From positions 762 through 64,761 of IMG/VR virus record IMGVR_UViG_3300023213_000167: a DNA stretch of 64,000 nucleotides. One strand, given 5' to 3'. The stretch is from a virus. Shown here piece by piece: positions 26,195 through 57,273 of the stretch; the first letter of the stretch is position 1; every line of letters starts with the position of its first letter. The position numbers were made by a program, and so were the translations under genes. Under the pieces are notes generated by a model. That model ran no database searches and had not been told where the DNA came from. It saw nothing but the letters and a program-made list of their open reading frames with translations.

Positions 26195-26430
26195 GGATCA
26201 TACTCCTCGCTGTACAGAAACACCTCCACCTTGCCCTCAGCCTTATCTACATACCACTGTAGGTGCGCGCCGCAGCCGTGGATACGCGTTCCTCCGTGGT
26301 AGTCCGGGAGTAAAACGTAGCCCGTGGCCGGGATCATGCAGAATGTCTTGAACGGATTGCCCGCCAGGTCGCGCGCGGTTCCTACTTGCCACATGCAACG
26401 ATAACTCCGTGACCCGGGAAAAAGTCCCAT
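26191..26430 (-). CDS. Hypothetical protein
   Basis: 79 aa; ATG 5 nt after a palindrome copy; ATGA overlap with the ligase. Confidence 0.55.
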   Translation of the reverse strand: MGLFPGSRSYRCMWQVGTARDLAGNPFKTFCMIPATGYVLLPDYHGGTRIHGCGAHLQWYVDKAEGKVEVFLYSEEYDP

Positions 26431-26435
26431 GTCGT

Positions 26436-26451
26436 GTCAACCTGGGTTGAC
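26436..26451. repeat. Palindrome copy 1, GTCAAC-CTGG-GTTGAC
   Basis: Read directly; lies in a 22-nt intergenic gap. Confidence 0.9.
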
Positions 26452-26452
26452 G

Positions 26453-27172
26453 TCACAACGTCTTGAATCGGCCCATGAGATTCTTGAGCTCCACGCGGCC
26501 AGGCTTGGGCGGTTGCACTGCCATGAGATTGTTTTTGCTGCACGGGAAGCACAGCTGGCCGTTCTGGCTGAGGCGGGCGTTGATCTCATCATAGCTCGGG
26601 GGCCAAGGAATGAGAGTGCCGCACATGGGGCATGGGCGCTCGGCGCAGGCGTTACACAGACTTACCAGGAACCCGCAATTCTCTGGGATGCGGCGCATGG
26701 CGTACATGTTGGCCCACAGCGCATTGGGCGGCAACAGCACGTATGTCTTGCTCTCGATGTTCCACTTGAGAGACAGCGGGCGCTTGTACCGCGCGTGGCC
26801 GCACACCATGCACACTGCGACCGTGAAGTACGACTCGTTGAACATCCGCGCCAAATCGGCGGGCTGGGTATAGGCTGCCAAGTAGGTCACCGGGTCCCAA
26901 CTGTCATCCACATACGCCCGCTCACTGCCATATGACCACAATGCCGCGTGGCTAGGCTCGTGTAACAGCAGGTCCTTTGTCCATACCCGCAGCCGCTCCA
27001 TCAGAGCGGAGCGTAGGTTTGCAGTTGACAGCGATGCGTTGTGCACCAGGAACGCCAGCACCGCGCCCATGTCAATGGGGGCGCCCTGCCGTATCGCCGA
27101 GGCGAACCTCTCGATTTCGCTTACATTGTCCACTAGGGTTCCGCTCCGAAAGCGCATGTTCAGTCCACTCAT
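26453..27172 (-). CDS. Hypothetical protein with CxxC motifs
   Basis: 239 aa; CMVCGH, CNAC, CPMCG and CFPC; ATGA overlap with the GATase. Confidence 0.6.
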   Translation of the reverse strand: MSGLNMRFRSGTLVDNVSEIERFASAIRQGAPIDMGAVLAFLVHNASLSTANLRSALMERLRVWTKDLLLHEPSHAALWSYGSERAYVDDSWDPVTYLAAYTQPADLARMFNESYFTVAVCMVCGHARYKRPLSLKWNIESKTYVLLPPNALWANMYAMRRIPENCGFLVSLCNACAERPCPMCGTLIPWPPSYDEINARLSQNGQLCFPCSKNNLMAVQPPKPGRVELKNLMGRFKTL

Positions 27173-28647
27173 GGGGTTGTAACCACGTCCCGCGGTATGT
27201 CGGACTTGATGTTACAGAACGCACACCGCAATATCCAGGCATTCCACGTCGCCAACCTAGCCCACGCTCCACACCACGGACACAGGTATCCTCCCGACTT
27301 GTAGGCATTAGTAGTGCCTACAAAGTTGCTTGGCAGTGGCATGGTGAGAAGCAGCCACTCGTAGGGCAGCTTGTGATCCAAGGATGTGGTGCCATCCTCG
27401 CGCTGCGCAGCGGGCAGGCGCACGCTGTTGAAGTTGCGATGCCACCACTTCTTCACGCGCTTGTGCGGGCGGAAGAAGCTGTAGCGGTAAACGCCGCCGT
27501 TGTGCTGCGCCATCCGTCGGAAGTTCCAGTGCCCATATGGCGTGGGTACCCTTAGCTGCATCCCATCGCTGCCATTCTCCAGCAAATTGTTGTAACGATC
27601 CGGATCGCAGTTGCGCCAGTCCATCCGGTGCCGATCGAACTCAGGCAGCGGTTTACTGGGGTCACGTTTGTGGCTCACAGGACGCCACGTAATGTCCCAT
27701 GCTTCCTCACTGTACGTCACGCCATCGCTGTACTTGTTGACGCGCTTGGCTTCAGATTCCGAAGGGCCAGTCTCCGTAATCAGGGTCGTGCTCACTGCGC
27801 AAGAGCGCAGTGGCGTGCGGGTGGGAGCGCCGGTCTTCGACACGGAACCCCCATCGTTTAGTATACGATGCTGTCTTCCCACGCCCCGCGTGTGTGTACG
27901 CGGGTGAAAAAAAGGGGAGCGCGTGACCTTCCAGGCACGCGCAAGCTGCTCATTGGGCTCCAGTACCAGAATGTGGTTATTCGGCACTCGTGTCATGGTG
28001 AGGAACCGTATGTTGGCGATGGGTACCGAAGGCAGCCGTCGTCCCGCCACCGCCGCGCTGCTCCAGTACAGGATCTCCTTCTTGGGATCTAGGAACAGAA
28101 AGACGTCCGCCCCGTCCAGCCGCGCCAGCGCGATGCGGTCACGGGAATTCGCGTTCCAAATAGCCAGCGTGGCGCTGCCTTGCAGAATACTGAGGTAGGT
28201 CAGAGCTGTGTCATAGTCCGTGCCCTGAGACAGCACCAACGGCACCGCGGATGTATCCACTTCAGCGGACCTGTGGTCCTTGTCATAGTAGTCCCACAAG
28301 TCATCGTCGTTGGTGATTTGGCCGTTGTGGACAACCACCCACCCGCCCCGTTCCACGGGATGGTTGTTACGGTTGTCCTTGGCCTCTCCCTTTGTCGCCT
28401 GCCGCGCGTGTACCAGGCCGCGTGGGCTAGAGACAATCTTGTCCCACAACCCGCTGTCGCGCCCGATGGTGCTAATTAGGTGCTCGGCAGGCCCCTGGTG
28501 TTTCTTGATCCGGATGCTGGTGCCCTCCTGAAATGCGACACCCGCGGCATCGGTGCCGCGCAGGCGGTTCGCCAACAGCAGCGCCTGCACGTGGCCCACC
28601 GTAGGCCGCGCATCCCCCCAACAATACCACCCTCCGATTCCGCACAT
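27169..28647 (-). CDS. Class II (Ntn) glutamine amidotransferase with C-terminal extension
   Basis: MCGI N-terminal nucleophile, RGTDAAG, HARQAT, NNHP, VHNG and VDT; C-terminal CPWC...CAFC. Confidence 0.9.
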   Translation of the reverse strand: MCGIGGWYCWGDARPTVGHVQALLLANRLRGTDAAGVAFQEGTSIRIKKHQGPAEHLISTIGRDSGLWDKIVSSPRGLVHARQATKGEAKDNRNNHPVERGGWVVVHNGQITNDDDLWDYYDKDHRSAEVDTSAVPLVLSQGTDYDTALTYLSILQGSATLAIWNANSRDRIALARLDGADVFLFLDPKKEILYWSSAAVAGRRLPSVPIANIRFLTMTRVPNNHILVLEPNEQLARAWKVTRSPFFHPRTHTRGVGRQHRILNDGGSVSKTGAPTRTPLRSCAVSTTLITETGPSESEAKRVNKYSDGVTYSEEAWDITWRPVSHKRDPSKPLPEFDRHRMDWRNCDPDRYNNLLENGSDGMQLRVPTPYGHWNFRRMAQHNGGVYRYSFFRPHKRVKKWWHRNFNSVRLPAAQREDGTTSLDHKLPYEWLLLTMPLPSNFVGTTNAYKSGGYLCPWCGAWARLATWNAWILRCAFCNIKSDIPRDVVTTP

Positions 28648-28697
28648 TACGGCCTCCCCCTTCCCGCGCTCATCCGTTAGGGCTGAGCACGCAGTGC

Positions 28698-29756
28698 TTA
28701 GTACCGTGTGATGCCGTGCTCATTGCAGAAACTGCTCCACCCGTAGTTGTCCTTCCACACCAAGTCTAGGGCGCCATCCTGTGGAAGAAACTTGGGTGCA
28801 GTCATGATGGTGTTAGCCTTGTAGTGCCCGGCGAACTCCCCGCTGACCGCGATACGGCCCTCGCCAGTGTTGATGGCGCGGGTAATGGCTTCCTCTGCGC
28901 CCTTGTCGTGCGCCTTCTCGAACACGGGGAAGTCCATTGCGATATCGCGCATGATGCCTAGGCCCAGGTGGCCCACGGCGGGATGCGACCATACCTCGGG
29001 GCCGGGCGTGCGGTACTCAATGCCCACGAATAGCGGCGGATCGCCGTCATAGAATTTCATGGCCGCATCGTATCTCCCGCGCAGCAACGTGTTGCCAAGC
29101 AGGTTCATCCGCTCGGCCTGGGCCTTGTCCCAATACTTCCCATGCTGCTGCATCCGAAACTCCCCGGCCTGGCCGTAAAACTGGCGCCGCGCCCAACTGG
29201 CGGGGGAGGGATACATGCAAGCAAGAGGCACGCCCAGGTGCTTGTCGCACGCCTTGATGTACGTGGCGACGCGCTCCGCATCTCGCATCCAGGCGTAGGT
29301 TCCGGTGAATGCTTCCAGCAAAGGCACACTGATGTGTAGGTGGCCCCCCGCGTATCGGAAGGGATGCGTCATGGCGTCGATGGGCGGGCACTTATACTGC
29401 ACCGTGTAGGCATCCATACTCGGCTCACACCCGAATTGCTTCACGTCGTCGGGCGCATCTATCATGTCCGCTAGGTCTATTTGCACCGTCGGCAGTGCCT
29501 TGACCGCGAAGCCTTTCGCGGCCATCTTTTGCTGCAACTCCCGCAGAGACAGGATGGCGGTCATAGCCACGCTTTCGCGGCAGGTGTACGCAGCGGCGAG
29601 ATTCAACTCCACCGCGTAGCCGTCACGGAAGAAGTGACCGTAGACCGTCTTTGTCTTGTGGTGCTTATCCCCGAACGCCAGATGCGCAGGGGCAGGCTTG
29701 TCCCCCTGGAACAAAAAGTATTCAGGGTCGGTCCCAAAGTAGAACGGGTACGCCAT
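28698..29756 (-). CDS. phiEco32-like COOH-NH2 ligase type 2 (copy 2)
   Basis: FGTDPEY, DGYAVELN, FGCEPSMDAY, RYAGGHLH, RRQFYGQAGEFR and GIEYRT. Confidence 0.9.
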   Translation of the reverse strand: MAYPFYFGTDPEYFLFQGDKPAPAHLAFGDKHHKTKTVYGHFFRDGYAVELNLAAAYTCRESVAMTAILSLRELQQKMAAKGFAVKALPTVQIDLADMIDAPDDVKQFGCEPSMDAYTVQYKCPPIDAMTHPFRYAGGHLHISVPLLEAFTGTYAWMRDAERVATYIKACDKHLGVPLACMYPSPASWARRQFYGQAGEFRMQQHGKYWDKAQAERMNLLGNTLLRGRYDAAMKFYDGDPPLFVGIEYRTPGPEVWSHPAVGHLGLGIMRDIAMDFPVFEKAHDKGAEEAITRAINTGEGRIAVSGEFAGHYKANTIMTAPKFLPQDGALDLVWKDNYGWSSFCNEHGITRY

Positions 29757-30509
29757 TACCGCCTCCTCTTTACTTGTCCGGATCTATCTCCGCCAACATG
29801 TCAATTACCTCACGCTCCTTGAAATAAAAATTGCTACCGAGTTCTACCGGCCATTCCTCGGTTGTGGCGGGCTCCAGTTTGCCTAGCACAGGTACCTTGG
29901 GTGTATCATCCTGCTTATAATGCTCCGGCAACCGGGCGGCATCAAAGGCGCCGGAGCCGGGCCGCATGGCAGGAGGGGCGACGGGTAGTTCGTAGTGCTT
30001 CAGTTCCTTGTGATGCTTTTCACAGCAGAAACGGCAGAAGTCCCCAATGCAGCGGTACCCTGTGACGGGGTTAACCTTGCAGCCCTCGCTGATACACTTG
30101 CCCCAATTCATCGTATTGGCTCTTTCCCATTGGCGGGCGCGGTGATCCTGACGACCATCGGTGTGGTAGCTCTCGTTAGAACGGAAAACCATCCCACGGC
30201 GCCTCATATTGAGTGACGTCGACGAGTCTTCCCAAGCGCGGACCAACCACGCTACTATGCCCCACAGCAGACATGCCAGGACTATCAGTATCCACATTTG
30301 CTGGCTTAGACTCGGCTCCTCCATTGGCTAGTATCGGCAAACTACGCCGCTCCCCCAAGTGCCTGAGTATTCCCTCTTCCAAAGGAATGAATGTGTCTCC
30401 ACAGTTGTCACAATGATACATCCCCGACTCTTCGCAGTCCCCATAAATTTTGGTGAGGTGCTGCGAGGTGTTGCACTGATAGCACTTAATCTCTCCTGCG
30501 TCCTCGCCC

Positions 30510-30953
30510 TCAGGAGGTTTCTGTGGGCTCATACCCCGCGTCCTTCAATACCTTCCGTAGCGCTTGCACCTGCCTCACGGACAGCCGCGTGGTTTCATAA
30601 CCCTTGTCATGATAAATGCTGCGGAAGCGCTTGGGCGGGAACTTCTTGACGCTTTCGACGATGGCCGCGCGCACGCCATTTTTGTTTGGGCAATCGTCTT
30701 CGCCACACGTGCAAACCCCGTTGTAGCCGGGGATATTCTTAGGTATAGGGCGCACAGTGTTGCTGTAGCACCAGACATGCGCGCCCTGGTCATAGCAGCG
30801 CTGCACGTAGGTGTGCGTGTCCGACTCTAGCTCCGCGAGCAGGCGGTAGGCGGGGCGCCCCGTGAGGGCGCGTAGGCAGTGCAGCGTCAGCCCGATGTGG
30901 TCCATGTCCCGCCACTTCTTCAACAGCACCTTCCAGTCCGTGTCCTTAGCCAT
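30510..30953 (-). CDS. Hypothetical protein with SWIM-like Cys motif
   Basis: 147 aa; VCTCGEDDCP. Confidence 0.5.
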   Translation of the reverse strand: MAKDTDWKVLLKKWRDMDHIGLTLHCLRALTGRPAYRLLAELESDTHTYVQRCYDQGAHVWCYSNTVRPIPKNIPGYNGVCTCGEDDCPNKNGVRAAIVESVKKFPPKRFRSIYHDKGYETTRLSVRQVQALRKVLKDAGYEPTETS

Positions 30954-31198
30954 GTTGTCTTACCCCGTCGCGTCGCTTTCGGTGTTCTTCTTGCCAGGGA
31001 CGGTCAGCATCCGGAGGCAACGGAAGTTTCCCCCCTCGACGATGCCAAGGTACCCCGCCTCGTCACAAATGACGACGGCCAGGTCGTCCGTGACTGCCAG
31101 AATCAAAGCTGGGCTGTCCACGCCGATTGGCCACGCATGGCCGGCTTCCCCGGCGACTCGCTGGACCACCCCTCCACAGAAACCCTTGGTCGTAACCA

Positions 31199-31471
31199 TT
31201 ATGCGTCCCCTCCTCCTTCTATGTACAGATCGTGCTCAACCTCGGGGCACCCGTGATCCCACTCATCTCGTAGGAACACCGTGCGCGGCAGCGGATTCAC
31301 CCGCACCGGCTCACAGCGTGAGATGTTTATTTCTTCGCGGTTGTCCTCGCTCATTTCTTGCATCCTCTCGACCAACGCGGTACGCGCCTGCATACATTCA
31401 TCGTAAGACTTGAACACCCTACCTTCTGTGTGCACGGGTAGGATGGAAATGAGAATAACCCATAGTAACAT
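31199..31471 (-). CDS. Small signal/TM-anchored protein
   Basis: Hydrophobic N-terminus then FKSYDEC. Confidence 0.55.
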   Translation of the reverse strand: MLLWVILISILPVHTEGRVFKSYDECMQARTALVERMQEMSEDNREEINISRCEPVRVNPLPRTVFLRDEWDHGCPEVEHDLYIEGGGDA

Positions 31472-31498
31472 GAGCGTTAGCCCTTCTAGACGGTGTCG

Positions 31499-31855
31499 TT
31501 ACTTCTTAGGGCAGGGGCAGGTGCCGCTGTTGCAGTAGCGGTGATCTTTGAACGCTACCCGGTGAAAATTGAGGAACGTCTCGGCGGTGCTGTGATACTG
31601 ACCTCCTTCGCGTGGATGCCGCCACAGGTCGCGGTTACGCGGATGCATTTGGTAACCGTGCCAGATAAGCATCTTGCGCACCCACATGCCTATCTCACGT
31701 GACACGCCGTCTCGCTCAAACGTGCGCGGGCGCGGCGCCACAACAGGATCGACAATGACCTGAGCATCTTCCGGGGGTTGCAGCTTAGCGGCTTTGTCAG
31801 CTAGTTCAGTCTGCCCGCCACGACGCAAACCTTCAACGTAAGCAGCGTAGCTCAT
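31499..31855 (-). CDS. Hypothetical protein
   Basis: 118 aa; AGGAGAGGTG RBS; C-terminal HRYCNSGTCPC. Confidence 0.6.
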   Translation of the reverse strand: MSYAAYVEGLRRGGQTELADKAAKLQPPEDAQVIVDPVVAPRPRTFERDGVSREIGMWVRKMLIWHGYQMHPRNRDLWRHPREGGQYHSTAETFLNFHRVAFKDHRYCNSGTCPCPKK

Positions 31856-32801
31856 GGTGCCACCTCTCCTAACCGAGGAACTCCCGAGGCAACTGGTACT
31901 GTCGTTCCGAGGCTACTACTGAAGATGAACTACGTCAGAGACATCTACAGGTGTCAATTTTCCCAACACGGGCACCACAATAGAGTCGTCCCGTCCGCGC
32001 GGTACGTCAGGGGGAACCTTCTTCCGCAGCGCAGGCAACGCCAACCCACCCGCCACCTTATTAAATGCATGATTAGCAGGGTCCCAATGCTGCTTAGGAC
32101 GGCGCTCACGACGGCTATCGTAATGTACACGGGCCGCGTCTATCCTTTCCCGCGCATCCGCGCGGTGCCCCACGTGTTCACGCGCGTTACCCACGATTAA
32201 GACCGTTCGCTGCCCAAAGCTGGGCAAATGTCAGGATGATGCGGGCCTCCTGCGGAGTCAGCTTGTTGCGCGCCTCTATTTCCGCAAACCACGCACTGAG
32301 AATCTCGTTGGGCACCAGCTTGGGATGTTCCAAAACCTCATAGCATTTCTGCGTAGTGGTGTCATACAAATCCCAATGATCGAAGAAGCTGCCCTCATCT
32401 ATGCACAGCTCAAAGCGCGGCTTCGGTTTTACCTTGGGCATAACACCCCCCGGTGTATGAAGTCACAGTACGCCTTGTTGGCCCGGGACCATTTCCGCGT
32501 CTCCTTACATCCGCTGCACAATCCCTCCGGGTCCAATACAAACTGACCAGCCGTGGAATCAAAGTTGATCTGGACCAGGGACGTATTGCACACCGGGCAT
32601 GGCGGTGCAGCCAGTCCGCGATAGCGCCACCTAGTCCAGAGGTCCAACGCCGGTTCTCCTACTTGCCGAAGCCACCGAGCGGCGAAATGATGCGTGTTCC
32701 GGTGATGATGCTGTGTAAGCCGAGACCCACGAAGCTCAGCGCCATCACGATGACGACAGCAGCTACGAAGATACCTAGTGCCTTGAACACGTGTCCTCCT
32801 T

Positions 32802-32817
32802 GTCAACCTAGGTTGAC
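32802..32817. repeat. Palindrome copy 2, GTCAAC-CTAG-GTTGAC
   Basis: Immediately upstream of an AAGGAGG RBS on the minus strand. Confidence 0.9.
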
Positions 32818-33530
32818 ACGGCGGGGCCGATTCCCCGCCGTGCCGCACAGGAAACGCACACGACACTACCTACACCTACGCCATCACAAAAGGCATTTCG
32901 TGTAGGAGGCAGAGACATTCGCGATCATCCCCATCCGCGACGACCGCCGGGTCCCCTGCCGCGGGCATCACAGGTACGCCGAGGGTGTTACCGCCACGGC
33001 ACCTGTGACCTGCATCCCCGCCCTGTAACCCCACCCGCGCCCATTCTCCCATCCTGAGTTGCGAGTGTCCCCCCTGTTACTTCCGCCGGTAGCAGAAAGC
33101 ATGGGGTTTGGAGCCCCAGAGACCTCTGCGTCCCGGTACTACGTTGGTCAGGCTTTTACGTGTCACCGTAGGGTTACCGGCGACGACCCACCCTCTCTCA
33201 GTGCCCCTTTTGACAGCTTTGGGGCATCCCCTAGCCTGACAAGCGGCGCCGTACAACAGCACCGCCTCCCCAAGTCAGCGTTAGCCTCCCTCGGGGGTAC
33301 CTGGCCCTGGGGTTCTGTGCATCCCGCGAGAGTATTAGTCAAGCGTGGCGCGTGAAACCCCGGCATCCAGTCACTACAGCCGTTTCCAGCCCCCGGCCTG
33401 CGTTATCCTCGTCATGTATCGACGGTACGCCGCAGAACAGCCACCGAAGTAGCCTACCGGGTGCGTACTTTGGCATCGGCGTATAACCCCACCGTCGGGT
33501 GCGTGCGCAGCCGAGCACGCCTCGGATGCG
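32817..33530 (-). ncRNA. Candidate large structured non-coding RNA (~700 nt)
   Basis: No ORF with a credible RBS; many helices including UUCG- and GAAA-capped hairpins and two 8-bp long-range stems; directly follows a tRNA-like element. Confidence 0.5.
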
Positions 33531-33532
33531 TA

Positions 33533-33601
33533 TGGAAGGACTCGGGGGGATTCGAACCCCCAACCGCGTTTGGCGGACGCGCTTTAAGTCACCCTAGTCC
33601 T
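33533..33601 (-). tRNA. Aberrant tRNA-Gly(GCC)-like element with CCA end and no D-arm
   Basis: T-arm GGGGG-TTCGAAT-CCCCC, arm CGCGT-CCGCCAA-ACGCG, 7/8-bp acceptor, then U-CCA; only 12 nt where the D-arm belongs. Confidence 0.5.
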
Positions 33602-34101
33602 ACATCAAGCCAGACCAGGAAAGTCGCGCGCAGGTGGCCCACAGAACTTGACTAGCGTTAGCCCGTCTCTGCTATACCTGCGTCCGAGCCCCGTACAACG
33701 ATATCGTCCGTTACTTCCGCGGGCAATTCTACCAGTCGCGCAGGGGTTTCATGGCCCGCCTCCTTTTCCCAGGGTGCACGCCAGACACCATCCACGCCAA
33801 GTATCATGTCGACAATAGCCGGCCCCGCGCCAGATAGCCAGTCCTCAAAATTACGCGCGGCAATCACGGACTGTATCCCCAAATAACCGTAGCCAAAAGC
33901 CGCGCAATGCGACTGGCGTGAACGTAATGCAGCTTACCTGCGTATAGGGCGTCGTTCTGGGTCTCGATAGCCTGGCGCTCTTTTTCGGTGAACGTTACGG
34001 TGTAGATCACCTCACCACTGGGCGTTGAAGTGCGCTCCATGATACCCTCCCCCCTGTCTATGGTTAAGCCGCAGCCCCGCCTCACCTTTCTGCCTTACTA
34101 T

Positions 34102-34174
34102 TACCAACGGATGGATTTGGACCACCAACCCCCGGGCTCCACGGCCCGGTGCTCTGCCATTGAGCTACGTTGGC
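34102..34174 (-). tRNA. Aberrant tRNA-His(GUG)-like cloverleaf
   Basis: Acceptor GCCAACG/CGTTGGT, D-arm GCTC-AATGGCA-GAGC, anticodon stem CCGGG/CCCGG with an 8-nt loop CCGTGGAG, T-loop TCCAAAT; no encoded CCA. Confidence 0.7.
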
Positions 34175-34412
34175 ATATTGTCGGTAAAGCGGGGCTACGA
34201 CACCCTAATCTTCCATAGCCTCACGGATCATGAGGCCATCGTCGAAATTCAGCCAGTACAGCCGATGCCAGAACGTGTTGGGTATTACCAGCCGCTTGAA
34301 AGGTTTGCGCGCGGGAAGAACGGAGCACTCCTTTCTTTCCTCGCATTTCGCCGAGCGTGAGCCCGACTTGGCGGACCGAGCGGGAAGCCGGCCCGTCGCG
34401 CGCGAACCCTTC

Positions 34413-34601
34413 TTACCCCTCATGGTCAGCGCCCAATCCTCCATTCATCGCGAGAAAGACGCAGTCGCAGCAATCCTCCGGCCCCTCCGCGATGCACTGT
34501 TCGATCAGGTTCTGCCGGAGCTCGAACGGGAGGTTCCGCTCGTCTGTCCCCAACGACTCTGCCACTTCCGCGATAGGGCACACGAAGATTTGCTCTACCA
34601 T
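34413..34601 (-). CDS. Cys-rich microprotein (paralog A, 62 aa)
   Basis: MVEQIFVCPIAEVAESLG...PFELRQNLIEQC...DCCDCVFLAMNGG. Confidence 0.6.
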   Translation of the reverse strand: MVEQIFVCPIAEVAESLGTDERNLPFELRQNLIEQCIAEGPEDCCDCVFLAMNGGLGADHEG

Positions 34602-34762
34602 TGGTCCCCCAACCCCGGCCCGCCGTTCATGGCGAGCCATGCGCACGTGCAGTCATTCCCGCATATGTCGATCATGTCGTGCCGTAGCTCCTCGGGTACG
34701 GCGCTTACGTGCAACCCTAGCTCGGACGCCAACCAGTCTATCGGACACGCGGCAGTTGCCAT
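34595..34762 (-). CDS. Cys-rich microprotein (paralog B, 55 aa), not in the ORF track
   Basis: GGGGAGG RBS; MATAACPIDWLASELG...PEELRHDMIDICGNDCTCAWLAMNGG. Confidence 0.65.
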   Translation of the reverse strand: MATAACPIDWLASELGLHVSAVPEELRHDMIDICGNDCTCAWLAMNGGPGLGDQW

Positions 34763-36710
34763 CCTCCCCTCACCTGCGGTGTTATTGTTGTACTACGCCC
34801 GTGACACACACCAGCCGTGGCCGCACAGACAGCTACCCCGTATAAAGGGCAGTTCGTGCCAAGCGCAGATACAAACAAGGGCGCCACGGGGATACCAAGC
34901 TTTAACCAAGCACGCTACACTTGGCGGGCGTCCTGGCGGCGTTTCCTCTTCTACGCCTGATCCGGCCCATGCTAATAGCGATGGCGACCGTATGTCAAGG
35001 TTGGGGGCACAGTCACTGGCCGCCCCCCGGGCGTTGTACGAGTGTTTACTCCCAATATGCCAGCACGATGGCGTGGCTGGGGTCCACGTATCCTAGAAGC
35101 CACGGATCACTGACCGGGTTGAAGGTGGAGTACATCGGCGCGGCGACCTTGAAGCACCGGAACAGCCCGGTACGGCGGGCTTCCTCATACTTCAGTAGCG
35201 CCTGATCGGGGATGTGGCCGGTGTAGGAGCCGATGTCTTCCCAATCCACGTGCCGGACGTTGAACAGCCGGAACGGAATCGTCTTCCGGATGCGGTCTCG
35301 CAACGTACCGATGTCCATGATCAGTCCGAACTGAGCTTCCGCCAGGTCCCAGCGGCCCCGCGTCTGCTGCCCGGCCAAGTCTTGGCGGATTTCCGCCACC
35401 TTCGCCCTGTCCTCCGCCGCTTCACATGGTGCCGTCTCTACCTTTAGCATCCCGCTTCCTCCTGTGAAAGAAGTTACACCACGCACGGTTGTTGTCGCCG
35501 CCCGCTTCCCCGCCCATAGCTCCATTGAACAGCCCGTTGTTGCGGCGGTTCACTTCGCTGTCACACGCCCCCCGGGTCGCGGCCATGTCTTTGTGATACC
35601 CGCACAATTCTCCAATACCACGGCTGCGGACGGGGTAGCACTCGGGGCAATCTTGTGGGCTCATAGCACCTCCCCGGATGGGATGATAATGTCCGTGATA
35701 CGTGCCTCTGGAGGCAGCGGAGCTGGCGGGTCCGCGTGGTACCTCTGCTCCGCGGCAACGGCCTTGTCGAGCCAGACCAGTGCCGCGGCGTCACGGCCCT
35801 CGTACGCGTCGCGCAGGGCCATCGCGAAGTAGCACTTGGCGCGCGGGGGAAGGTCTCGCACGCCAGGCATGGTCATGAACATGGTGACCGGGATGACGGG
35901 CACCGCAACGATGTGTGGTGGCAACTGTTTCACCAGGTCGTTTCCTTCCATACAGGCTTGCCCACTTCCACCAGGTCACTGCTCCACGGGCAGCCGACAA
36001 CCTTGTCCTCGGCATCTCGCGTGAAGTGCAGCATCATGCGAAAGATACTGGGCCTACTGGTCACCGTCATCGGGGCTAATTGACTACAGCCCCCGCACCG
36101 GCCAAAAGGGCGCCGCGTTAACACCGGCATGGCTTTACCCCTTTCCCCCTGTCCACGCCTCCTCATCTGCAGGGTTCAACAACGGGACGACGGGCGGGCG
36201 TGGGTCGCGCGTCCCCCCATTCTCATAGAACCGTTTCACGACGTCCGCAGACTCTCGAAACTCCACGCCACGGTCATCGTTGCCCGGATGCGGACTGCGG
36301 TACTTCTTCCCGCCCATGAGATTCTTACGCCGTCTCATGCGTACCTCCCCGGCTTACGCCGGCCGTCCGGCAAGTGACACCCGCACGTCAGCAGCGGCGG
36401 GGTGGTCCCCGCCGTGCTGCGCGTTGTATCCCAACGCTTGCGCGCCTTCCCGCGTCCATACACGCGCACCATGTCATGCCACAACGCGCCAAGATACAAC
36501 GTCAGCTTTTGCCGCTCCGCCACGCTCAGCACGTTACCGCACGCACGCGTGGATGATGTCAGCCTTGACCTCGTACAGGATGTTCTTAATCTGAGCTATC
36601 TCGCCGTCGCTGAAAGCCGCGGCGACGCCCGCCGCCGACACCAGGAAGCCAAAGGCCACTCCCGCTATGAACTTTAGCATGTCTGCTCACCTCCTCCACA
36701 CGAAATTCGT

Positions 36711-36726
36711 GTCAACCCCGGTTGAC
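36711..36726. repeat. Palindrome copy 3, GTCAAC-CCCG-GTTGAC
   Basis: About 13 nt upstream of a GGAGGAGGTG RBS on the minus strand. Confidence 0.9.
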
Positions 36727-38113
36727 AGCTGCGGTCCTTCCGCGCAGCTGTCTGTACAACAGCGCCGGTACTCCTGGGTACGGACCCAGGCATACATCAG
36801 CACACACACGAGGATTATCGCCCCCGCGTAGTGTACCCACGTCTCGAATGGGCTACGCACCCGCACGGCTCACCTCCCGCCCGCGATCTCATCCCGCAAC
36901 AGATGAGAAGGTACACAGCCATGCCGCCCGAGGAATCCAGCATACTCCACGACGATTGCTTTGTTCGGGTCGGCACCGTACATCATGTACGCGTGTAACT
37001 CGCCCACGCTGAAGGATTCCCGGCAGTCCATCCACCAGGCACCAACGGTTGCGCCGTGTGCCCATCCGATGTGGAACGCCGACGAGCCTGCGCGCCACTG
37101 CGAGACCAGCACATTCTCCGCGATGACCGGCGGCTCATCACCGGCACACGCGATGCTGGCGAGGACAAATATCGCGACAAGCGCGGCCAGTCCCGCCACT
37201 ACCACAAGTGTTAAACGCTCCGGTTTCATATGCTCTCACCTCCCCCCTCCCAGGTGCAATAGCCCGTAGTGTGCGGCCCCAGGTGCTCTATTTCCTTGGT
37301 GCAAATGCTGCCGTGCTCGCACTCCACCGAACAAAACCCCAACCTACGCCTCATCTCCGCGAAGATGGGGTGGCGGAGAATATGCCCCAATATCTCCTCC
37401 GTGGCGCCCTCGTCTGGATCGTAGTCATCCATCATGGACTCCTCAGATGACGATGGAACCAGTCGTCAACCAGCCTAACCGCGAGCGGAAACGCGCGCCC
37501 CGATGGGCTATAGTACCAGATGGCAAGGATGGGGTAGTACCCCAACGCCGCACAAGACACGGGATACAAGCCACTATGTTCACGTAAGAGGCGTACCGCG
37601 GCGAAGCGGCCACGTAACGCAGCCCCACGCGACGCGTGTTCACAATGATGTGGGCACAGTAGCGACATAGGTCAAGAGGCGGGGGCCGTAGCGGGTTTGT
37701 CATCATCGCCATGTTGTGCCCCTCCCGTGGCCGCCGGGTGATTGTTCGGCGGCGCCTGATGCCGTGGACACCACGTGTAGTAAGGGAGCAAACAATGCGT
37801 CGTGCCTGCATAACACGCGCATGTCCACTCCTTCCTACACGCCGTGTGGATACAGAAGTGCGCCTTCACGCACGCACGTACGCCAACAACCTGCGCCACC
37901 AAGACGCACGCTGCAACGCCTCTCGTTCCAACACGTGCAACCGTTCACGCACGAAGGAGATTGTCCCGTGTAAATCCTTGTCGGTCATCCCGCGGACGGC
38001 CTCAGCCTCACGCGCGAGCCACGAGGCGTCTACGCCCTGCGGTATGTGCGTGACCGTGGCGGGCACCTGTGCCGACAACGCACATTTGCCCCTATGCGTG
38101 AATACCACCCACG

Positions 38114-38545
38114 TCACACGCCGTCCACGACCGCCAGCAGCAGTCGTGCCTCCTTCACCCGCTGATGCGAGACAGCCCGCTGCTCATACACCCGTTTCTT
38201 GGCGCGGTAATCCGCGCACAGGTCCTGCCGTTCAACGCGCGACAAGCCTGACGCCTTGAGGGCGCCATTCAACGCCCAACAACGTGCCGCCTCACGGCTG
38301 TACTTGTCCTTCGGGTTATACTTCACCGAAAAGACAACAGCGTCGGGCACGGTGCACGGTCCCTTGGTATCTGTGCGTTCGCACAGTCCTGGGTGGACGG
38401 TGCACGTCGTGCCTGGACCCGGCGGGTAAAGGCCCGTCGGGTGCGGCATGTCGGGGACGTGGTGCCAGTGCGCGCTGTACAACGTTCCATCCGGCGCGTC
38501 TAGCCTCAAAAGCGTTTCCCCCTGATACTGAGCACGTAGGTGCAA
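38114..38545 (-). CDS. Hypothetical early protein
   Basis: 143 aa; KYNPKDKYSREAARCWAL; GTGA overlap with the next gene. Confidence 0.55.
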   Translation of the reverse strand: MHLRAQYQGETLLRLDAPDGTLYSAHWHHVPDMPHPTGLYPPGPGTTCTVHPGLCERTDTKGPCTVPDAVVFSVKYNPKDKYSREAARCWALNGALKASGLSRVERQDLCADYRAKKRVYEQRAVSHQRVKEARLLLAVVDGV

Positions 38546-38799
38546 TGCGCGACGTTGCTGGCCTTGCCGCTGCCGTAGACGACGTGGACCAGCAGGAATC
38601 CCGCGTCATCCAAAGATACGGGTGGCTCGATAGTGACCGAAGAAACTGCACCGTGCTTGGTGCGGAGGAGCCGATGGGAGGCGGGGAGCAGCTGGTCCAG
38701 CGTCAGGCGAAACTTGTGGGCTACGTCAGCGCGCGTACGGATCTCGATAGCTTGCGTCACCTCTTCTCACCTCCCGCCCGTGAAAAGACGTGCTACCGC

Positions 38800-38815
38800 G
38801 TCAACCGGGGTTTAC
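38800..38815. repeat. Palindrome copy 4, GTCAAC-CGGG-GTTTAC (1 mismatch)
   Basis: Upstream of the GGAGGTGA RBS of the gene starting at 38760. Confidence 0.75.
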
Positions 38816-39245
38816 GTCAAAGGCGCCTCAGTTAAGCCACGCCTTCGCCTGCGGCGAATTAGCCACGACGACCGCGGCCGCGTGCAAGTGTGGTATCAAC
38901 ATGCGCGCCAGCCGACGGTGACATGCAGTATCTCCGCACACAGGATCGCCACATTCCTGTACGGCACAGCCGCACACGAAACACGCGCAACACACGCAAG
39001 GCTCCACAGCCTCACCCGCTTTCCGCGTCAGGGAAGCACGGTCCCGCGTGTGTCCAGGGCTTCCCGCAGCCGGTTACGTGGCATTTGGGCACGTGACAAC
39101 TGCACGTGCATTCGTAGGTGTGCGGATCGTGCGCGTCACCTTCGCTGCGGCCAATGCACACGTCGTGCTGCCCATCCTTACAACGCTGGGTCAGTTGCCT
39201 GTGTACCTGCATCTTCAACGCCATACTGTCTCACCACCTTTCCGT

Positions 39246-39261
39246 GTCAACCTGGGTTGAC
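39246..39261. repeat. Palindrome copy 5, GTCAAC-CTGG-GTTGAC
   Basis: Upstream of the RBS of the gene starting at 39224. Confidence 0.9.
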
Positions 39262-39657
39262 GTTATTCAGGCTCCCGAGACAACGGCGTCCAACGACATA
39301 CACAGGGAATCCGCCGCGGGCGTCCTGGACAGCAGCTGCACCCGCAATACCACACCCACATCCGGGTGTACCGCAAGAGGTACCACCGAATTGGAGCCGT
39401 GGCTATTGCCGGCATACTTTGTCACCGCGAGGGATTCCCGCTTCGGCCACCGCAATGTCAAGCACCAACCGGCGCGCCCCCAACGGCGGATGCGCCAATT
39501 CCCAGGCAATCGTGCGCCCAACCTCGCTCGTGGTTATCACCGTGCGATTCAATTCCACGCCAATGCCGTCCGGATTCAAGCCTTCGGCGTTATACCAACG
39601 ACCGCGCAGCGCCACGCTGATACGCTTTTGCGCCATCGCGCCTCACCGCCTTCCGGT

Positions 39658-39673
39658 GTCAACCCGGGTTGAC
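39658..39673. repeat. Palindrome copy 6, GTCAAC-CCGG-GTTGAC
   Basis: Extends to a 20-bp perfect palindrome; upstream of the gene starting at 39636. Confidence 0.9.
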
Positions 39674-40089
39674 ACTGACGCGCTGCGTCAAAGATGGACA
39701 ACACGAAAAGGGCATACCACGGCCCCACACCGAGGCCATGGTACACCCCACCACGTCATACAACAACACGATACAACAACAACATGGCAAGCTGGCCCCA
39801 CCCTACTGCCAGTGCCAGCCCGGCGCCTACAAACGCACGTGCGCCCCCGCACGCGCAAGCACCGTGCTATCCCACGCCCACGCCGCCCTTAGACGGCGAC
39901 GTCCAGAAGGTCAGCGGCCCGGATTAACCACTCGATCAGCGGCCCGGGCTTACCGTGCGCCACCCACGAAAGGTAACGCTCATACAACTCGTCGTCCCGT
40001 ACATGCGCCACATCGGCGCCGTATCTCCAGCGAAGGCTAGGAACGACGTCCTGCCGATCACCGAGCGGCAACGTACTCACCTCATTCCC

Positions 40090-40340
40090 GCGCGGATACA
40101 CACCCTACTTACACCCCCAACCGAAACAAAGGCGGTTTGGGCGCGTGGCCCGACTTTAACGGGCCGCATCTCTAAGGTACCAAGTATGGCGAAGGTGTAT
40201 CCGCGCTAACGGTGGTACCGTATGTGGTGGCACGCGCGTCCAACCGAAGGGTCCGCACGGCCCGACTTAAACGGGCAGCAAGGCCAAACAGGGGTGCGGG
40301 TCTTCAGACCCACTATTGTTTGCGCTGTGGCGTGCGGTTA
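40090..40340 (-). ncRNA. Candidate structured RNA with twin repeated hairpins
   Basis: 12-bp stem 40090-40101/40195-40206; duplicated hairpin GGCCCG-ACTTWAA-CGGGC at 40147 and 40259, each preceded by CAACCGAA. Confidence 0.45.
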
Positions 40341-40343
40341 GTC

Positions 40344-40359
40344 GTCAACCCGGGTTGAC
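40344..40359. repeat. Palindrome copy 7, GTCAAC-CCGG-GTTGAC
   Basis: Outer edge of the trailer of the 40422 gene. Confidence 0.9.
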
Positions 40360-40367
40360 ACGCAAAC

Positions 40368-40401
40368 GGTTCATGCACTCTTGAGACGGTACGGCCCCGC
40401 G
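40368..40401. repeat. Left arm of imperfect 34-bp inverted repeat (partner 41552-41586)
   Basis: ggttcatgcactcttgagacggtacggccccgcg versus reverse complement of the partner, ggttcgtgctctcttgaggcggtgcggccctcgcg. Confidence 0.85.
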
Positions 40402-40421
40402 CGTGAGCCGCGCCGGGACGA

Positions 40422-41483
40422 CTAGCTCGTTTTCTCCGTTTTGGGCGTGGGCACCAGCTTCATGCACAGCGCCGCGAGCCGCTCCGCCTGAGCCTGCGTC
40501 AAGCTGATACCCTTTTTGGGGGCATTCTTGAGTAGGCCGTCCATGCTGCCCATGAAGGCGAACTTGTTGGCGAAGATGCTCATTTTGTTGCTTTCGTGAC
40601 GATGGGTGGTCGGATTCCACTTCAGCGCCACGATCGACAAGGCTTCCGCCCGTGCCTCGGCGGAGCTGCGTAGCTTGTCGTTGTGCTCCTGGTTCTGCGG
40701 ATCGTCGGCGTTTTCGACTACCGGCTTGACGGCGTTGCGCCACGCGACATGCGTGGTACTCAGCCAGACACCGGCTTGCAGCATGGCAATCGGATCGCCA
40801 TACGCGGCGCCACCGACGAGGACAAATCCCTTCTCCACCCACGTGCGGGTGACTTCGGGAAGGGTGAGACGCTGCGCGTCTGTCAGCTGATCGTTGAGGG
40901 CCGGGAAGTACACGCCTTCCTTCGCGACGCTAGTCCATGCCTGCTTGTGCAGGATGCAACTGGCGATGCGCGCAAGCTGGATGTACCGATTGACCCGCTG
41001 CCGGTACCCGCTGCTGACCAGCGGCTTGGGCTCTTTCGGGGCACGCTTCGATGACGCCACGTACAACTCTTGGGTCTCGGGGTTGGTACCAGCCACGTAC
41101 CGAGTCCCTTCGATTTGGGGGTTGACGTTTTGGTCGATTGTGCCGTAGAACAGAGCGGCCAGCCGTTTCGCCAGAGTGGCGGCGCCTTCCTTGTAGATTG
41201 CGAAGAACTCCGCCAGATCAGCCACGATGGGGGCGGCCAAGTTCTGAGCGTGCGACGTGTCGCTTACGCGGTCAGCCGCGATGTTCTTACCGAGCCGCTG
41301 CTCGATGAGCGCAAGGGCGGATGCCTGCTCTTCGATACGTTTGGCCTGCTCGTCGATGGCCGGAGCCTGTACGTGTGGCCCGGGCGACGTGTCAACCACC
41401 GGCGCCGCGGTCGGCGTCTGCGGTGGCGCAACATCGTCCACGACGACACTGCCGGGCGTGTTAGACTCTTGGGTGGTATTAAT
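40422..41483 (-). CDS. Orphan early protein (339-353 aa) flanked by complementary leader and trailer
   Basis: Largest ORF of the early region; track start GTG 41441 has no RBS, while an in-frame ATT at 41483 follows GAGGT by 5 nt. Confidence 0.7.
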   Translation of the reverse strand: MNTTQESNTPGSVVVDDVAPPQTPTAAPVVDTSPGPHVQAPAIDEQAKRIEEQASALALIEQRLGKNIAADRVSDTSHAQNLAAPIVADLAEFFAIYKEGAATLAKRLAALFYGTIDQNVNPQIEGTRYVAGTNPETQELYVASSKRAPKEPKPLVSSGYRQRVNRYIQLARIASCILHKQAWTSVAKEGVYFPALNDQLTDAQRLTLPEVTRTWVEKGFVLVGGAAYGDPIAMLQAGVWLSTTHVAWRNAVKPVVENADDPQNQEHNDKLRSSAEARAEALSIVALKWNPTTHRHESNKMSIFANKFAFMGSMDGLLKNAPKKGISLTQAQAERLAALCMKLVPTPKTEKTS

Positions 41484-41551
41484 GGCGTACCTCGCGTTTC
41501 GGGTGAGATGTTACCCCGTGCGCGCCAGCCGCGTATGCTGCCGGCTGGTGC

Positions 41552-41586
41552 CGCGAGGGCCGCACCGCCTCAAGAGAGCACGAACC
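41552..41586. repeat. Right arm of imperfect inverted repeat (partner 40368-40401)
   Basis: 30 of 34 positions identical plus a 1-nt bulge. Confidence 0.85.
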
Positions 41587-41635
41587 GCTTACGTTTGTAC
41601 GGGGTTTCACCCGAACGAACCCACCACGTTTTCGT

Positions 41636-41651
41636 GTCAACCCGGGTTGAC
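41636..41651. repeat. Palindrome copy 8, GTCAAC-CCGG-GTTGAC
   Basis: Outer edge of the leader of the 40422 gene. Confidence 0.9.
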
Positions 41652-42442
41652 GTCTTCCCAACGCCACGTGAGGGTGACAGGGATACCGTCCACATGGATT
41701 GTGTGTAGCGCGTACTTACCGGCAGGTACTGCGCGCTGCTGTGTGCTGACGGTGGGACTGTGCGACTGACACATGTGAGGCAGCGGTCTCATGTGTAACC
41801 GCCGCCGCTCCGCGTGCTCGCCGCCGCAGTTACAAGGCCAGTCGTGATACCAGACCGAGCCGGGAAGGAATACTAGGTCACTCATCGCGGCATACCACAC
41901 AGCCGGGACACGGCTGATGGGCGAACCGCGTGCGCGCGAGCACGAGGGCCGCGGTAAGACGTCCGGGGTATGCGCGCGACAGAATGTCGTCGCGTAACTG
42001 GCCGGCCGTCCTACCGATTCCTAGGCGCCGCGCGCGGGTAACGATGTTCCTTACCGGAATGCCGTTACCGCGCCGCGTCTGCATTGTCGGGAATATCCGC
42101 ACGGGCGAAACCCCTTTCCGGGCCCGCCCGGGCGAAACCCCGGACAAACGCTGCCAACGGGGAATAGCCCGTTGGACTACGCACCTATGTGCTCAGTGTC
42201 ACCGGATGCGCGCTGAGTCCAGGGCCGGGATTCTGACGGTAGCGTGGGACTGTGCCGGGGTCGTTAGTCCCCGCGGCCCACGCCGCGTCTGTCGCCGTAG
42301 CCCCCACGCGCGCGGTACTTTGTCCTACCACGCGCGCGGCGCATCCGACGTACTACCGTGCTTTGCATCATTGCTCTGGCGTGCGCTGCGGGTTTGTCCC
42401 GTGACATTTTGTGTCACCGTCCGCCCGCCTGCCTCACCGGGT

Positions 42443-42458
42443 GTCAACCCGGGTTGAC
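42443..42458. repeat. Palindrome copy 9, GTCAAC-CCGG-GTTGAC
   Basis: Left edge of the control region. Confidence 0.9.
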
Positions 42459-42580
42459 AGGACTGCCGCGCCGAGCCTACCGTCCGTTTGTTACATAAAT
42501 GCTCTGGCGGCCAAACACCCCAACGCCTGTGTACTAAACATGTGTTGAGTAGTATGCCCGCGTGTCACATTGGCACAACT

Positions 42581-42596
42581 GTCAACCTGGGTTGAC
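42581..42596. repeat. Palindrome copy 10, GTCAAC-CTGG-GTTGAC
   Basis: Inside the control region. Confidence 0.9.
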
Positions 42597-42990
42597 ACAT
42601 GGGCGTGTCAATCTGTCCCATACCCTTCGGGCCCACATGGGTTGACTAGGCCCACACGTGTTGACTAAACATGTGTTTAGGGGTCCTCCGACGTTCGAGA
42701 GCCGCGGCCGCGCGCGCATGCCTGAAAATCGAGTATGTGACCCAGAAAGGGACCCCCGAATATTTTAAATTTTAGGTACCTTTGCAGGTCATGCCTTTTC
42801 TCCTGATTTATTAAGCATTTACAATACACTGTTTTGCTTAATAAATTCGCGGGGTTGCAGGCCGACACTCGTTTTATGTCGGCGGACACCCCCCTTGTCA
42901 AGTTTATTTTATTTTGTGGCATTTTGCTTACAGCCATTGAGTTTACAGCGCACTTTTGGGGCACTTTTCAGGGTCTTCTTGAAAAAGGTG

Positions 42991-43814: not shown

Positions 43815-44552
43815 TTGAAGGACTCACCCCAGGTTGAGGCATATGACTCCCTAAGGTTTGGTAGGGACTTAGCCGGCTCCCCCTATGGAAGCGCAGCCGG
43901 CCCCATGGCGAAGTATGTCTACATGATACACCATGGGCAAACGGCCCTGAAAGAGAAGCTACACGGCCTCCAGAATGAGCCTTTGGACGCCGCCGGGAGG
44001 GGGCAAGCCGAGAAGGTGGGTGAGCTTCTCGCTGATGTACCCCTCCTACATATCTTTTCCAGTGATCTCAGGCGTTCCCACGAGACATCGGACATAATCT
44101 CCCAGGTAAATCCGGGACATCCTGGGGTGCAGGTCCTACCCTCCCTCCGTCCATGGAATCTGGGGGATGTCGCCGGTCAAAAGCTGGACGCCGCTTTCAA
44201 GAAGCTCCTTGATTATTACCAACATCAGGAGCCTGATACCCCCTTCCCCACCGAAGGTGGGGAGCCCTGGAACAGCTACATGGCCCGCTTCATGCCCATG
44301 CTCAAGACACTCTTTGACGGGGCCGTGAAGCTAAAGCAACAGGGCGTGCTTGGCCTCGTTGGACACTCCCACGGCATGCGGGTTGCGGATGCCTGGGTTA
44401 AGGCCGGCGCCCCGGCCAACTTGTCCCTCCCCGCGTCTTTCCACATCAGCGCGGAGCACCCCGCCGCCCCGGATCACCCCTTGAAGTTCGCGTGGGACGG
44501 GAACAATTGGGCTGAGGAGGCCCTGCAACAGCATGGCAATCGGGGGGCTTAA
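43815..44552 (+). CDS. Histidine phosphatase (phosphoglycerate-mutase-like)
   Basis: MIHHGQT (RHG variant), PLDAAGRGQA, FSSDLRRSHET, LRPWNLG, GEPW and VGHS. Confidence 0.85.
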   Translation: MKDSPQVEAYDSLRFGRDLAGSPYGSAAGPMAKYVYMIHHGQTALKEKLHGLQNEPLDAAGRGQAEKVGELLADVPLLHIFSSDLRRSHETSDIISQVNPGHPGVQVLPSLRPWNLGDVAGQKLDAAFKKLLDYYQHQEPDTPFPTEGGEPWNSYMARFMPMLKTLFDGAVKLKQQGVLGLVGHSHGMRVADAWVKAGAPANLSLPASFHISAEHPAAPDHPLKFAWDGNNWAEEALQQHGNRGA

Positions 44553-44898: not shown

Positions 44899-45083
44899 AG
44901 CGCCTTTGGGCCTATATAAAGGACTGGCTGGACCTACAGCATCCGGTCATATGGCCAGAGAACATATGGACCGCTCCCGCGGTTCTGCCCCTAGTGTCGC
45001 TAGACTGCGGCCATACCCATTGGTCCTACGCCATCAGTCATACAGGTAAAACCCAGTGTAGAGACTGTTACGAGAAGCGGTAA

Positions 45084-46512: not shown

Positions 46513-46515
46513 TTC

Positions 46516-56755: not shown

Positions 56756-57202
56756 ATGCCAATGCCGGGAGCGATGATGCCCGGTGGGCCAGGTGGTGGC
56801 GGTGGTGGTATGCCGCCTGGAAGCCCCGGCGACAACAGCGGTATGGGCGGGCTTGGCCAGGACCCGAACAGTGCGGCCGCACTGTCGGCAATGGACCTGC
56901 TCAGCCCTAAGCAGGCAAATCCCACCGCGGCACTACAGCAGGTAGAGGAAGCGCTTAAGCTCGCGCACCAGTTGGTTGTGTCCAGCATCCCACAAATCAG
57001 CCAGTGGGCCCCTAAAAGTGCCAAGGACCTTCACAGCGCAGGGCGCGCAATCATTCAGGTACTAGAGGAACTACACGTCGACCAGCCTCTCATGCCACCC
57101 CCAGACCTGATGCTGGGTATGCAGCCCGGCCCAGGCGCCGCAAGCCAAATGGGCGGCGGCGGTATGGGCGGAGGCGCGGCAGGCTTTGGGTCGCCGGCGT
57201 AG
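56756..57202 (+). CDS. G/P/M-rich head-module protein
   Basis: 148 aa; low-complexity ends around a helical core; AGGGAG RBS. Confidence 0.6.
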   Translation: MPMPGAMMPGGPGGGGGGMPPGSPGDNSGMGGLGQDPNSAAALSAMDLLSPKQANPTAALQQVEEALKLAHQLVVSSIPQISQWAPKSAKDLHSAGRAIIQVLEELHVDQPLMPPPDLMLGMQPGPGAASQMGGGGMGGGAAGFGSPA

Positions 57203-57273
57203 TCAACCTAGGTACCGTATCACCCCGAGACTGACAACCCTCAGTCGGAACTGCCCGCGAAACAGTCACCCGA

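Follow-up and report, generated by a model that had tools for sequence, protein, structure and literature searches.

The virus record IMGVR_UViG_3300023213_000167 is 66,321 bp long, and the window analysed here comprises its bases 762-64761, a stretch of 64,000 nucleotides (nt). Gene calls based on codon usage divide the window into three blocks: tail and lysis genes on the + strand at 1-9.2 kb, a leftward block at 9.3-42.4 kb, and virion genes on the + strand at 43.8-64 kb. The leftward block holds the early genes, and all copies of a short palindrome, GTCAAC-N4-GTTGAC, the only over-represented motif in the phage genome, lie within it. A preliminary description of the sequence had listed ten copies of this palindrome at gene boundaries. 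A pattern search bore out their coordinates and placement; ten sites do exist, but nine are perfect and one, at 38800, is imperfect (Table 1). The number of exact palindromes expected by chance was 0.00 (100 dinucleotide shuffles) versus the nine observed. As had been described, there is no full copy elsewhere in the window, and the remainder of the 66,321-bp record also lacks an exact copy. We conclude that the palindrome array is a real and strongly non-random feature.

By our gene calls, all ten sites are non-coding (P ~1e-5 within 26-42.7 kb), and no equally good copy was found inside coding sequence; the sole coding contact is at 41636, which touches the stop codon of a weak open reading frame (ORF). 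Read on the gene strand, seven or eight palindromes have, in the following 11-41 nt, a start codon with its Shine-Dalgarno sequence, in keeping with the earlier remark that most copies stand just upstream of a minus-strand ribosome-binding site (RBS). The gaps between palindrome and leftward start are 11, 21, 21, 25, 30, 35, 39, and 41 nt, and the distance from palindrome to RBS ranges from 1 to 30 nt. Longer non-coding DNA follows the copies at 42581 and 40344. The two copies at the head of the leftward block, 42581 and 42443, are the closest pair (138 bp apart) and lie in a divergent control region. The genes flanked by palindromes are orphans; one of them, at 40422-41441 (339 amino acids, aa), has no homologue among 5.8 billion proteins.

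Table 1. Palindrome copies and related sequences, with window coordinates; distances run leftward, on the gene strand.
Feature	Position	Strand	Description
Copy 1	42581..42596	.	Exact; centre CTGG on +; opens the leftward block, within the divergent control region
Copy 2	42443..42458	.	Exact; palindromic over all 16 positions (centre CCGG); weak 47-aa ORF 35 nt on
Copy 3	41636..41651	.	Exact; centre CCGG; 25 nt with RBS, then GTG at 41610, start of a 43-aa ORF that precedes orphan gene 40422-41441
Copy 4	40344..40359	.	Exact; centre CCGG; 62 nt past the orphan-gene stop, then ~240-330 nt of structured non-coding DNA
Copy 5	39658..39673	.	Exact; 20-bp perfect palindrome with GT/AC flanks; 21 nt before start 39636
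Copy 6	39246..39261	.	Exact; centre CTGG on +; 21 nt before start 39224
Copy 7	38800..38815	.	One mismatch (GTTTAC arm), without compensating change; 39 nt before start 38760
Copy 8	36711..36726	.	Exact; centre CCCG on +; directly after a GC-rich hairpin; 30 nt before start 36680 of a 48-aa membrane peptide
Copy 9	32802..32817	.	Exact; centre CTAG, the only 'TA' centre; directly after a 9-bp GC hairpin; AAGGAGG adjoins; GTG start 32790
Copy 10	26436..26451	.	Exact; 1 nt past the stop of gene 26453-27133; precedes a 67-79-aa gene (26191-26394 or 26191-26430)
Two tandem degenerate copies	42631..42665	.	GCCCAC-N4-GTTGAC, two mismatches each, starting at 42631 and 42650; one GTTGAC arm kept; just upstream of copy 1 in the leftward sense
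Isolated 11-mer GTCAACCTAGG	57202..57212	+	Exact; one palindrome arm plus centre; before the scaffold and capsid genes; coincides with the stop of the gene preceding the scaffold gene

A half-site had also been reported at 57202. The 11-mer is indeed there, but about 0.12 further sequences of the GTCAACCTAGG type are expected by chance (our arithmetic from base frequencies), so taken alone it is a doubtful site without significance.

The extended consensus of the ten palindromes is (G)YGTCAACC-YR-GGTTGACR(C) (count table and repeat family D1). Over 12 arm positions in ten copies there is one change in total. The conservation extends to the spacer, whose first base is C and whose fourth is G at every site, and to the flanks, with a pyrimidine (T or C) on the left and a purine (A or G) on the right in 10/10. 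In five copies the palindrome is perfect over all 16 positions, and at 39658 over 20. Because the 16 nt adjoining the palindromes are only 66-91% alike (repeat family D2), the invariance of the arms reflects selection and not youth. The copies are thus shown to be under selection for the exact sequence of both arms. A 32-nt module of palindrome plus RBS, common to three sites, recurs (family D2).

The bases that would form the loop of a hairpin are themselves constrained, symmetrically and in their sequence, which therefore points to a dimer reading duplex DNA and not to a plain hairpin. The position of most copies invites a different explanation, in which a transcribed 6-7-bp hairpin just 5' of an RBS acts as a processing site, a 5' stabiliser, or a translational operator. 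All copies would be transcribed if the block is one operon; the 11-41-nt spacing from start codons and the recurrent palindrome and RBS module would fit such a role, and the stable hairpins that abut several copies could be the 3' ends of processed upstream messages. However, the 60 stem pairs contain no compensatory or G-U change, and the single substitution breaks its pair; the would-be loop is symmetric and constrained; the distance to the RBS is variable; and most minimum-energy folds do not show the palindrome as a separate hairpin. No Rfam family matched the palindrome region, and the one characterised setting of the motif is DNA upstream of a leaderless transcript (PMC10030653). We consider an RNA-level element unlikely. 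GC-rich hairpins abut the sites at 32802 and 36711. The only strong intrinsic-terminator-like site of the early block, a stem of 19 bp followed by a U-rich tail (39749-39709, minus strand), lies 36 nt before the palindrome at 39658. An RNA-level or unit-boundary role therefore keeps a small probability.

Hairpin promoters had been proposed as another possible role. No TANNNT was found 15-20 nt past TTGAC(A/G) at any palindrome on the gene strand (there was one chance match on the + strand), and in a scan for sigma-70-type promoters no palindrome coincided with a promoter-like site, nor were these in excess across the early region overall. Furthermore, several palindromes leave no room for a -10, a transcript start, and an RBS ahead of the start codon, and at 32802 the RBS starts straight after the palindrome. 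Because of the missing TANNNT, the lack of a scan match, and the adjoining RBS at 32802, we do not read the palindromes as promoters. A sigma-54 promoter was rejected on inspection.

The phage could instead supply its own promoter specificity. A 513-aa protein (48165-49706) gives sub-threshold matches to Sigma70_r2 and to PHROG sigma families in two libraries; apart from a 559-aa protein in the corresponding place of a relative, L026 (4031-5710; 24% identity, E 2e-6), it is an orphan. If it were a sigma factor, the palindrome or one of its arms could be a single-element promoter for middle genes. Its standing as the only over-represented motif would suit this, as would the SU10/phiEco32-like portal and adaptor proteins, the phiEco32-type ligases, the terminator-like hairpins that precede several sites, and the isolated arm and centre before the scaffold and capsid genes. 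In phiEco32 and 7-11, a short motif present in six to eight copies marks phage-sigma promoters, with starts 6-9 bp downstream; these motifs (tAATGTAtA; GTAAtg-16-aCTA) lack symmetry and precede genes of the middle and late classes (PMC8948821). The likeness to that system covers a distantly related virion module, a sigma-like gene, and six to ten motif copies upstream of genes, but the motif here is a palindrome confined to the early block. Sigma promoters are asymmetric, whereas the two arms are equally conserved with no + strand genes to use the other direction. There is no second element at a fixed distance, the RBS follows directly at 32802, and the sigma assignment itself consists of sub-threshold matches. 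The late + strand block has no copy save the doubtful half-site, and the + strand intergenic gaps yielded no shared late-promoter motif. A promoter for the sigma-like protein is, in our view, quite unlikely.

The arms, the inner C/G pair, and the flanks are conserved symmetrically, with neither covariation nor a -10. For these reasons we think that the palindromes are probably DNA operators, bound by a sequence-specific protein of two-fold symmetry (a dimer or a higher oligomer). Among the roles listed in the preliminary description, operators are the one that the sequence supports.

A scan of JGI metagenomes with the commonest 18-mer retrieved three unrelated bacterial contigs in which two palindromes, spaced 27-28 bp, directly adjoin the start of a gene encoding 70-83 aa. 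The three products are homologous helix-turn-helix (HTH) proteins, 50-75% identical. Searched with their alignment, GTDB genomes gave at least 573 loci; the best 80 (L100-L179) are all from Actinomycetota. The counts that follow refer to these best 80 loci, with sites scored at up to two mismatches. Relative to the HTH start, all 80 have two GTCAAC-N4-GTTGAC sites, at -46/-48 and -19/-20 except in one locus, where they are at -68/-40; only three other such sites occur in ~240 kb of flanks. The HTH gene encodes 69-83 aa, and the next gene in the loci inspected encodes a ~190-aa Clp_N protein (~30-160 nt away in the loci listed) that matches the ClpC1 N-terminal domain and ClpC2 structures. The HTH profile weakly matches the N-terminal fragment of Rv2667 (ClpC2). 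We refer to these as split clpC2 loci. In five whole actinobacterial genomes of 3-14 Mb, there are 0-4 exact palindromes each, all but one of them in twin loci; the nine exact sites that the phage carries in 16 kb exceed the count of any of the five. Twin operators at 80/80 loci and 0-4 exact copies per genome make a clean comparative result for the bacterial system in its own right.

The downstream operator in split loci is always TA-centred and forms a TANNTT -10 that lies 6-7 nt before the start codon, which is the position expected for a leaderless transcript. A weak match was also seen between the ClpC2-type HTH profile (alignment A3) and the structure of a cluster-A mycobacteriophage immunity repressor, 7r6r (E 0.0024). 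The stoperator of that repressor family contains TGTCAAG, so the recognition helices of the two proteins may be related.

ClpC2, which consists of an HTH and a Clp N-domain, has been studied in mycobacteria as a sensor of phospho-arginine and of antibiotics that target ClpC1. To our knowledge, its only known target is its own promoter. Published electrophoretic mobility shift assays have shown that it binds the pseudo-palindrome CGTCAAC-n-GTTGACG as an autorepressor; the operator, in many cases duplicated, overlaps the -35 and -10 of a leaderless promoter, and cyclomarin A releases ClpC2 (PMC10030653). A preprint gives a dissociation constant of ~10 nM for dual operators versus ~250 nM for a single one, with release by phospho-arginine (bioRxiv 10.64898/2026.06.30.735635).

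As judged from sequence, the phage palindromes are shown to equal the upstream-type ClpC2 operator in sequence, spacing, inner bases, and flanks. They match it position by position: the inverted GTCAAC/GTTGAC arms are exact in nine of ten copies; the N4 spacer is found at all ten phage sites and at both sites of all 80 split loci; the Y/R flanks, invariant in the phage, are present at 158/160 bacterial sites on the left and 158/160 on the right; and N1 is C-rich and N4 G-rich, as in the upstream (-35-type) operator. Only the copy at 32802 (CTAG) resembles the downstream, -10-bearing type. A dimer on DNA would be the expected reader in both cases. The spacer agreement is with the split-type operator, and differs from the n5 printed for the mycobacterial operator (Taylor et al. 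2023, PMC10030653). The architecture differs as well. The bacterial operators are paired 27-28 bp apart as the -35 and -10 of one leaderless promoter, whereas those of the phage, ten in number, stand singly along 16 kb, either within transcription units or between them, and the phage has no clpC2 gene. Because the sites agree in sequence but are not twinned at a clpC2 promoter, the array does not belong to the clpC2 locus family; we regard it as a variant of dispersed operator arrays that resembles, and possibly uses, the ClpC2 system.

Two candidates for the binding protein follow. It may be a phage regulator, not recognised by our searches, that has the same specificity as ClpC2. It is possible, and here we are more tentative, that it is a host ClpC2-type repressor, which would require an actinobacterial host. 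The full proposal, that the phage infects an actinobacterium and carries a ten-operator array for the host's ClpC2 sensor without encoding ClpC2, is put forward as a somewhat doubtful possibility. Searches of the phage for a homologue of the ClpC2 HTH (hmmsearch, hhalign; the positive control worked) found none, and ESM Atlas gave nothing usable for two small early proteins.

Several observations weigh against the operator reading or its candidate binders. The phage sites are single and not twin, and single ClpC2 operators bind ~25-fold more weakly. In vitro, repression from a single operator was negligible, the operator being too far away to hinder polymerase binding, and the authors of that work hold that ClpC2 acts at initiation and not by blocking elongation (bioRxiv 10.64898/2026.06.30.735635). 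With Pfam and PHROGs run on all called genes, none of the phage proteins was recognised as DNA-binding. The motif, searched as GTCAAC-N2-8-GTTGAC, is absent from a syntenic relative (G001), from two complete distant relatives (G002 and G003), and from L026, as from all 39 loci of relatives that were scanned. GTCAAC/GTTGAC palindromes contain the -35 consensus, and they are enriched between genes in many viral contigs of any G+C content (intergenic share 41% overall and 57% at high G+C, with ~15-19% expected). One such contig, the phage fragment G011 described below, has a terminase closest to those of Burkholderia, enterobacterial, and Vibrio phages. Proteins other than ClpC2 therefore probably also read this palindrome. 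Finally, the terminase and capsid of the phage studied here distantly resemble those of phages of Gram-negative hosts. The relatives of its DNA polymerase are all from Gram-positive phages, which is the only pointer in that direction; no o-spanin was found in the phage, which is weak evidence on the host.

Unrelated viral contigs carrying the motif bear on the same question. G012 (= L021) is a Mu-like myovirus virion module of 66% G+C with three identical CGTCAACCCGGGTTGACG copies at 733, 4789, and 10147, each followed within ~30 nt by a start codon of the virion operon. G011 (= L300) is a 17.9-kb HK97-like phage fragment of 60% G+C, in which three GTGTCAACCYAGGTTGWCAC copies lie within 120 bp (14188-14309) of a non-coding control region 1 kb long; the terminase genes follow ~2.6 kb downstream. 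Neither has a protein in common with the phage, and the ClpC2 HTH was found in neither. This speaks for a cellular factor, or for specificities that converged. Among 401 sampled Actinomycetota genomes, none yielded the G012 sheath protein, a result that is uninformative on the host. In G014 (L296-L297), a complete 63-kb virus of 50% G+C, four identical GTCAACTTGAGTTGACA copies at 3930, 14520, 22450, and 34600 are spread over 30 kb.

The phage looks lytic. Its virion proteins match SU10/P22-like portals and SU10-like adaptors, with a weak terminase match; it encodes a family A DNA polymerase, a primase-helicase, RuvC, two phiEco32-type ligases, a glutamine amidotransferase, a dATP/dGTP diphosphohydrolase, a lysozyme, and a pectate-lyase-like fibre. 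Genes for an integrase, a repressor, or a partition system were not recognised.

With two sites at the head of the leftward block and the others before single early cistrons, one protein could act on the whole early region, and an oligomerising repressor that bridges single sites would repress or gate the early cistrons. If the protein were host ClpC2, occupancy of single sites would require raised ClpC2 levels or oligomers that bridge sites. Ten sites per replicating genome would titrate the repressor and compete with the host promoter, so that expression of the early genes and of host clpC2 would be tied to the proteotoxic-stress state of the cell. Phospho-arginine and proteotoxic stress would then set the gating of the phage early genes by ClpC2, and replicating phage DNA, acting as a decoy, might strip ClpC2 from its own promoter and so switch on the ClpC1-decoy protein of the host. 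Such competition would be expected to induce host clpC2 in infected cells and to make early expression dependent on stress.

Dispersed arrays of one operator are known from a few temperate phages, where they are read by the phage's own repressor. The array described here differs in that the phage looks lytic, has no recognisable regulator, and carries a site that equals the operator of a conserved host regulator. In the literature searched, we found no link of either ClpC2 or the palindrome to phages. If ClpC2 does bind the phage sites, they would be its first target outside clpC2 and the first link of the ClpC2 pathway to phage infection; the phage would be plugged into a host stress repressor other than LexA, and a DNA motif would predict the host of an uncultured phage. 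If a phage protein binds instead, the sites would be a ready bait for a new regulator family among the orphan early genes.

Among the closest known systems are the stoperators of cluster A mycobacteriophages (L5 gp71 system). These 13-mers are asymmetric and biased in orientation, and the repressor that binds them is a monomer encoded by the temperate phage itself. As in that system, many copies of one short site occupy short intergenic gaps of a phage, and the half-site resembles TGTCAA; in contrast, the present sites are symmetric, no repressor gene or HTH was recognised, and no lysogeny genes were seen. The preliminary description had named the cluster O mycobacteriophage repeats and the PeSL elements of T4-type phages as analogues. 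PeSL is an early sigma-70 promoter coupled to a stem-loop. Both are repeated, dyad-symmetric intergenic elements beside small early genes in a variable region, as here, but the palindromes lack a promoter and appear unrelated in sequence. These analogues are less close than the ClpC2 operator, which the description had missed.

A likeness to LexA boxes had been noted too, and it extends to the 6-4-6 geometry only. The core of the Gram-positive and actinobacterial SOS box is GAAC-N4-GTTC. All ten sites have CAAC-N4-GTTG instead, and none has the GAAC/GTTC core, which rules out LexA boxes at the level of sequence; nor was an integrase or repressor recognised that would make SOS control meaningful. 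The probability of SOS regulation through these sites is negligible.

How the array relates to the evolution of the early region can be judged from relatives. INPHARED contained no near DNA match to the phage and no match to its portal, no cultured phage is close to it, and motif scans of IMG/VR and JGI metagenomes recovered no kin. About 100 metagenomic relatives share the portal. The syntenic G001 shares the replication and virion modules and nothing at 31-42.4 kb, where eight palindromes lie; with the protein queries used, no homologues of genes 44533-49706 were found in it either. Because G001, G002, G003, L026, and all 39 loci lack the palindrome, we conclude that it is lineage-specific and located in a hypervariable early region. 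In place of the dispersed motif, G001, which is the closest among the long relatives, has clustered palindrome arrays of its own, of the GTACTACGTAGTAC type, in its control region and inside its replication block (22.29-22.70 kb and 37.02-37.73 kb; L056).

Such a location raises the possibility that the palindromes are cassette junctions, that is, recombination points for gain, loss, or shuffling of small early genes in a PeSL-like or integron-like manner, a role that could coexist with a regulatory one. The region without homologue in G001 holds most copies, and the only copy inside a module conserved with G001, at 26436, stands exactly beside the small gene (67-79 aa) for which a protein search found no homologue in that genome. 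The orphan gene 40422-41441 is bracketed by two palindromes and by a 54-nt imperfect inverted repeat (40344-40397 and 41557-41610, 76% complementary) that runs into them, and the 32-nt palindrome and RBS module recurs. Gene gain or loss at the repeats, which had been suggested as a comparison between related genomes, thus fits at one junction, but this is the one informative indel, and no motif-carrying relative was found. In addition, no recombinase, HUH, or homing nuclease was recognised. The cassette view has limited support, and we regard it as improbable. On inspection, the sites also misfit the integron attC core (RYYYAAC/GTTRRRY), and attC was rejected.

Further elements were seen near the array and in the rest of the early block. 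Two 27-nt direct repeats (40142-40168 and 40254-40280, 85% alike) form twin hairpins within the 250-nt non-coding stretch that follows the palindrome at 40344. Two tRNA-like genes lie at 33538-33611 and 34101-34175; ARAGORN calls them tRNA-Gly(GCC) and a tRNA with a 4-base anticodon (gtgg), and the Rfam tRNA threshold is reached by the second only. The control region contains a second motif, (A)CTCAACAYATGTTTAGT, found twice in the window, at 42520-42549 and 42651-42680. It also occurs once in the early control region of L026 (~2620-2640, minus strand), and is thus kept where the palindrome is not.

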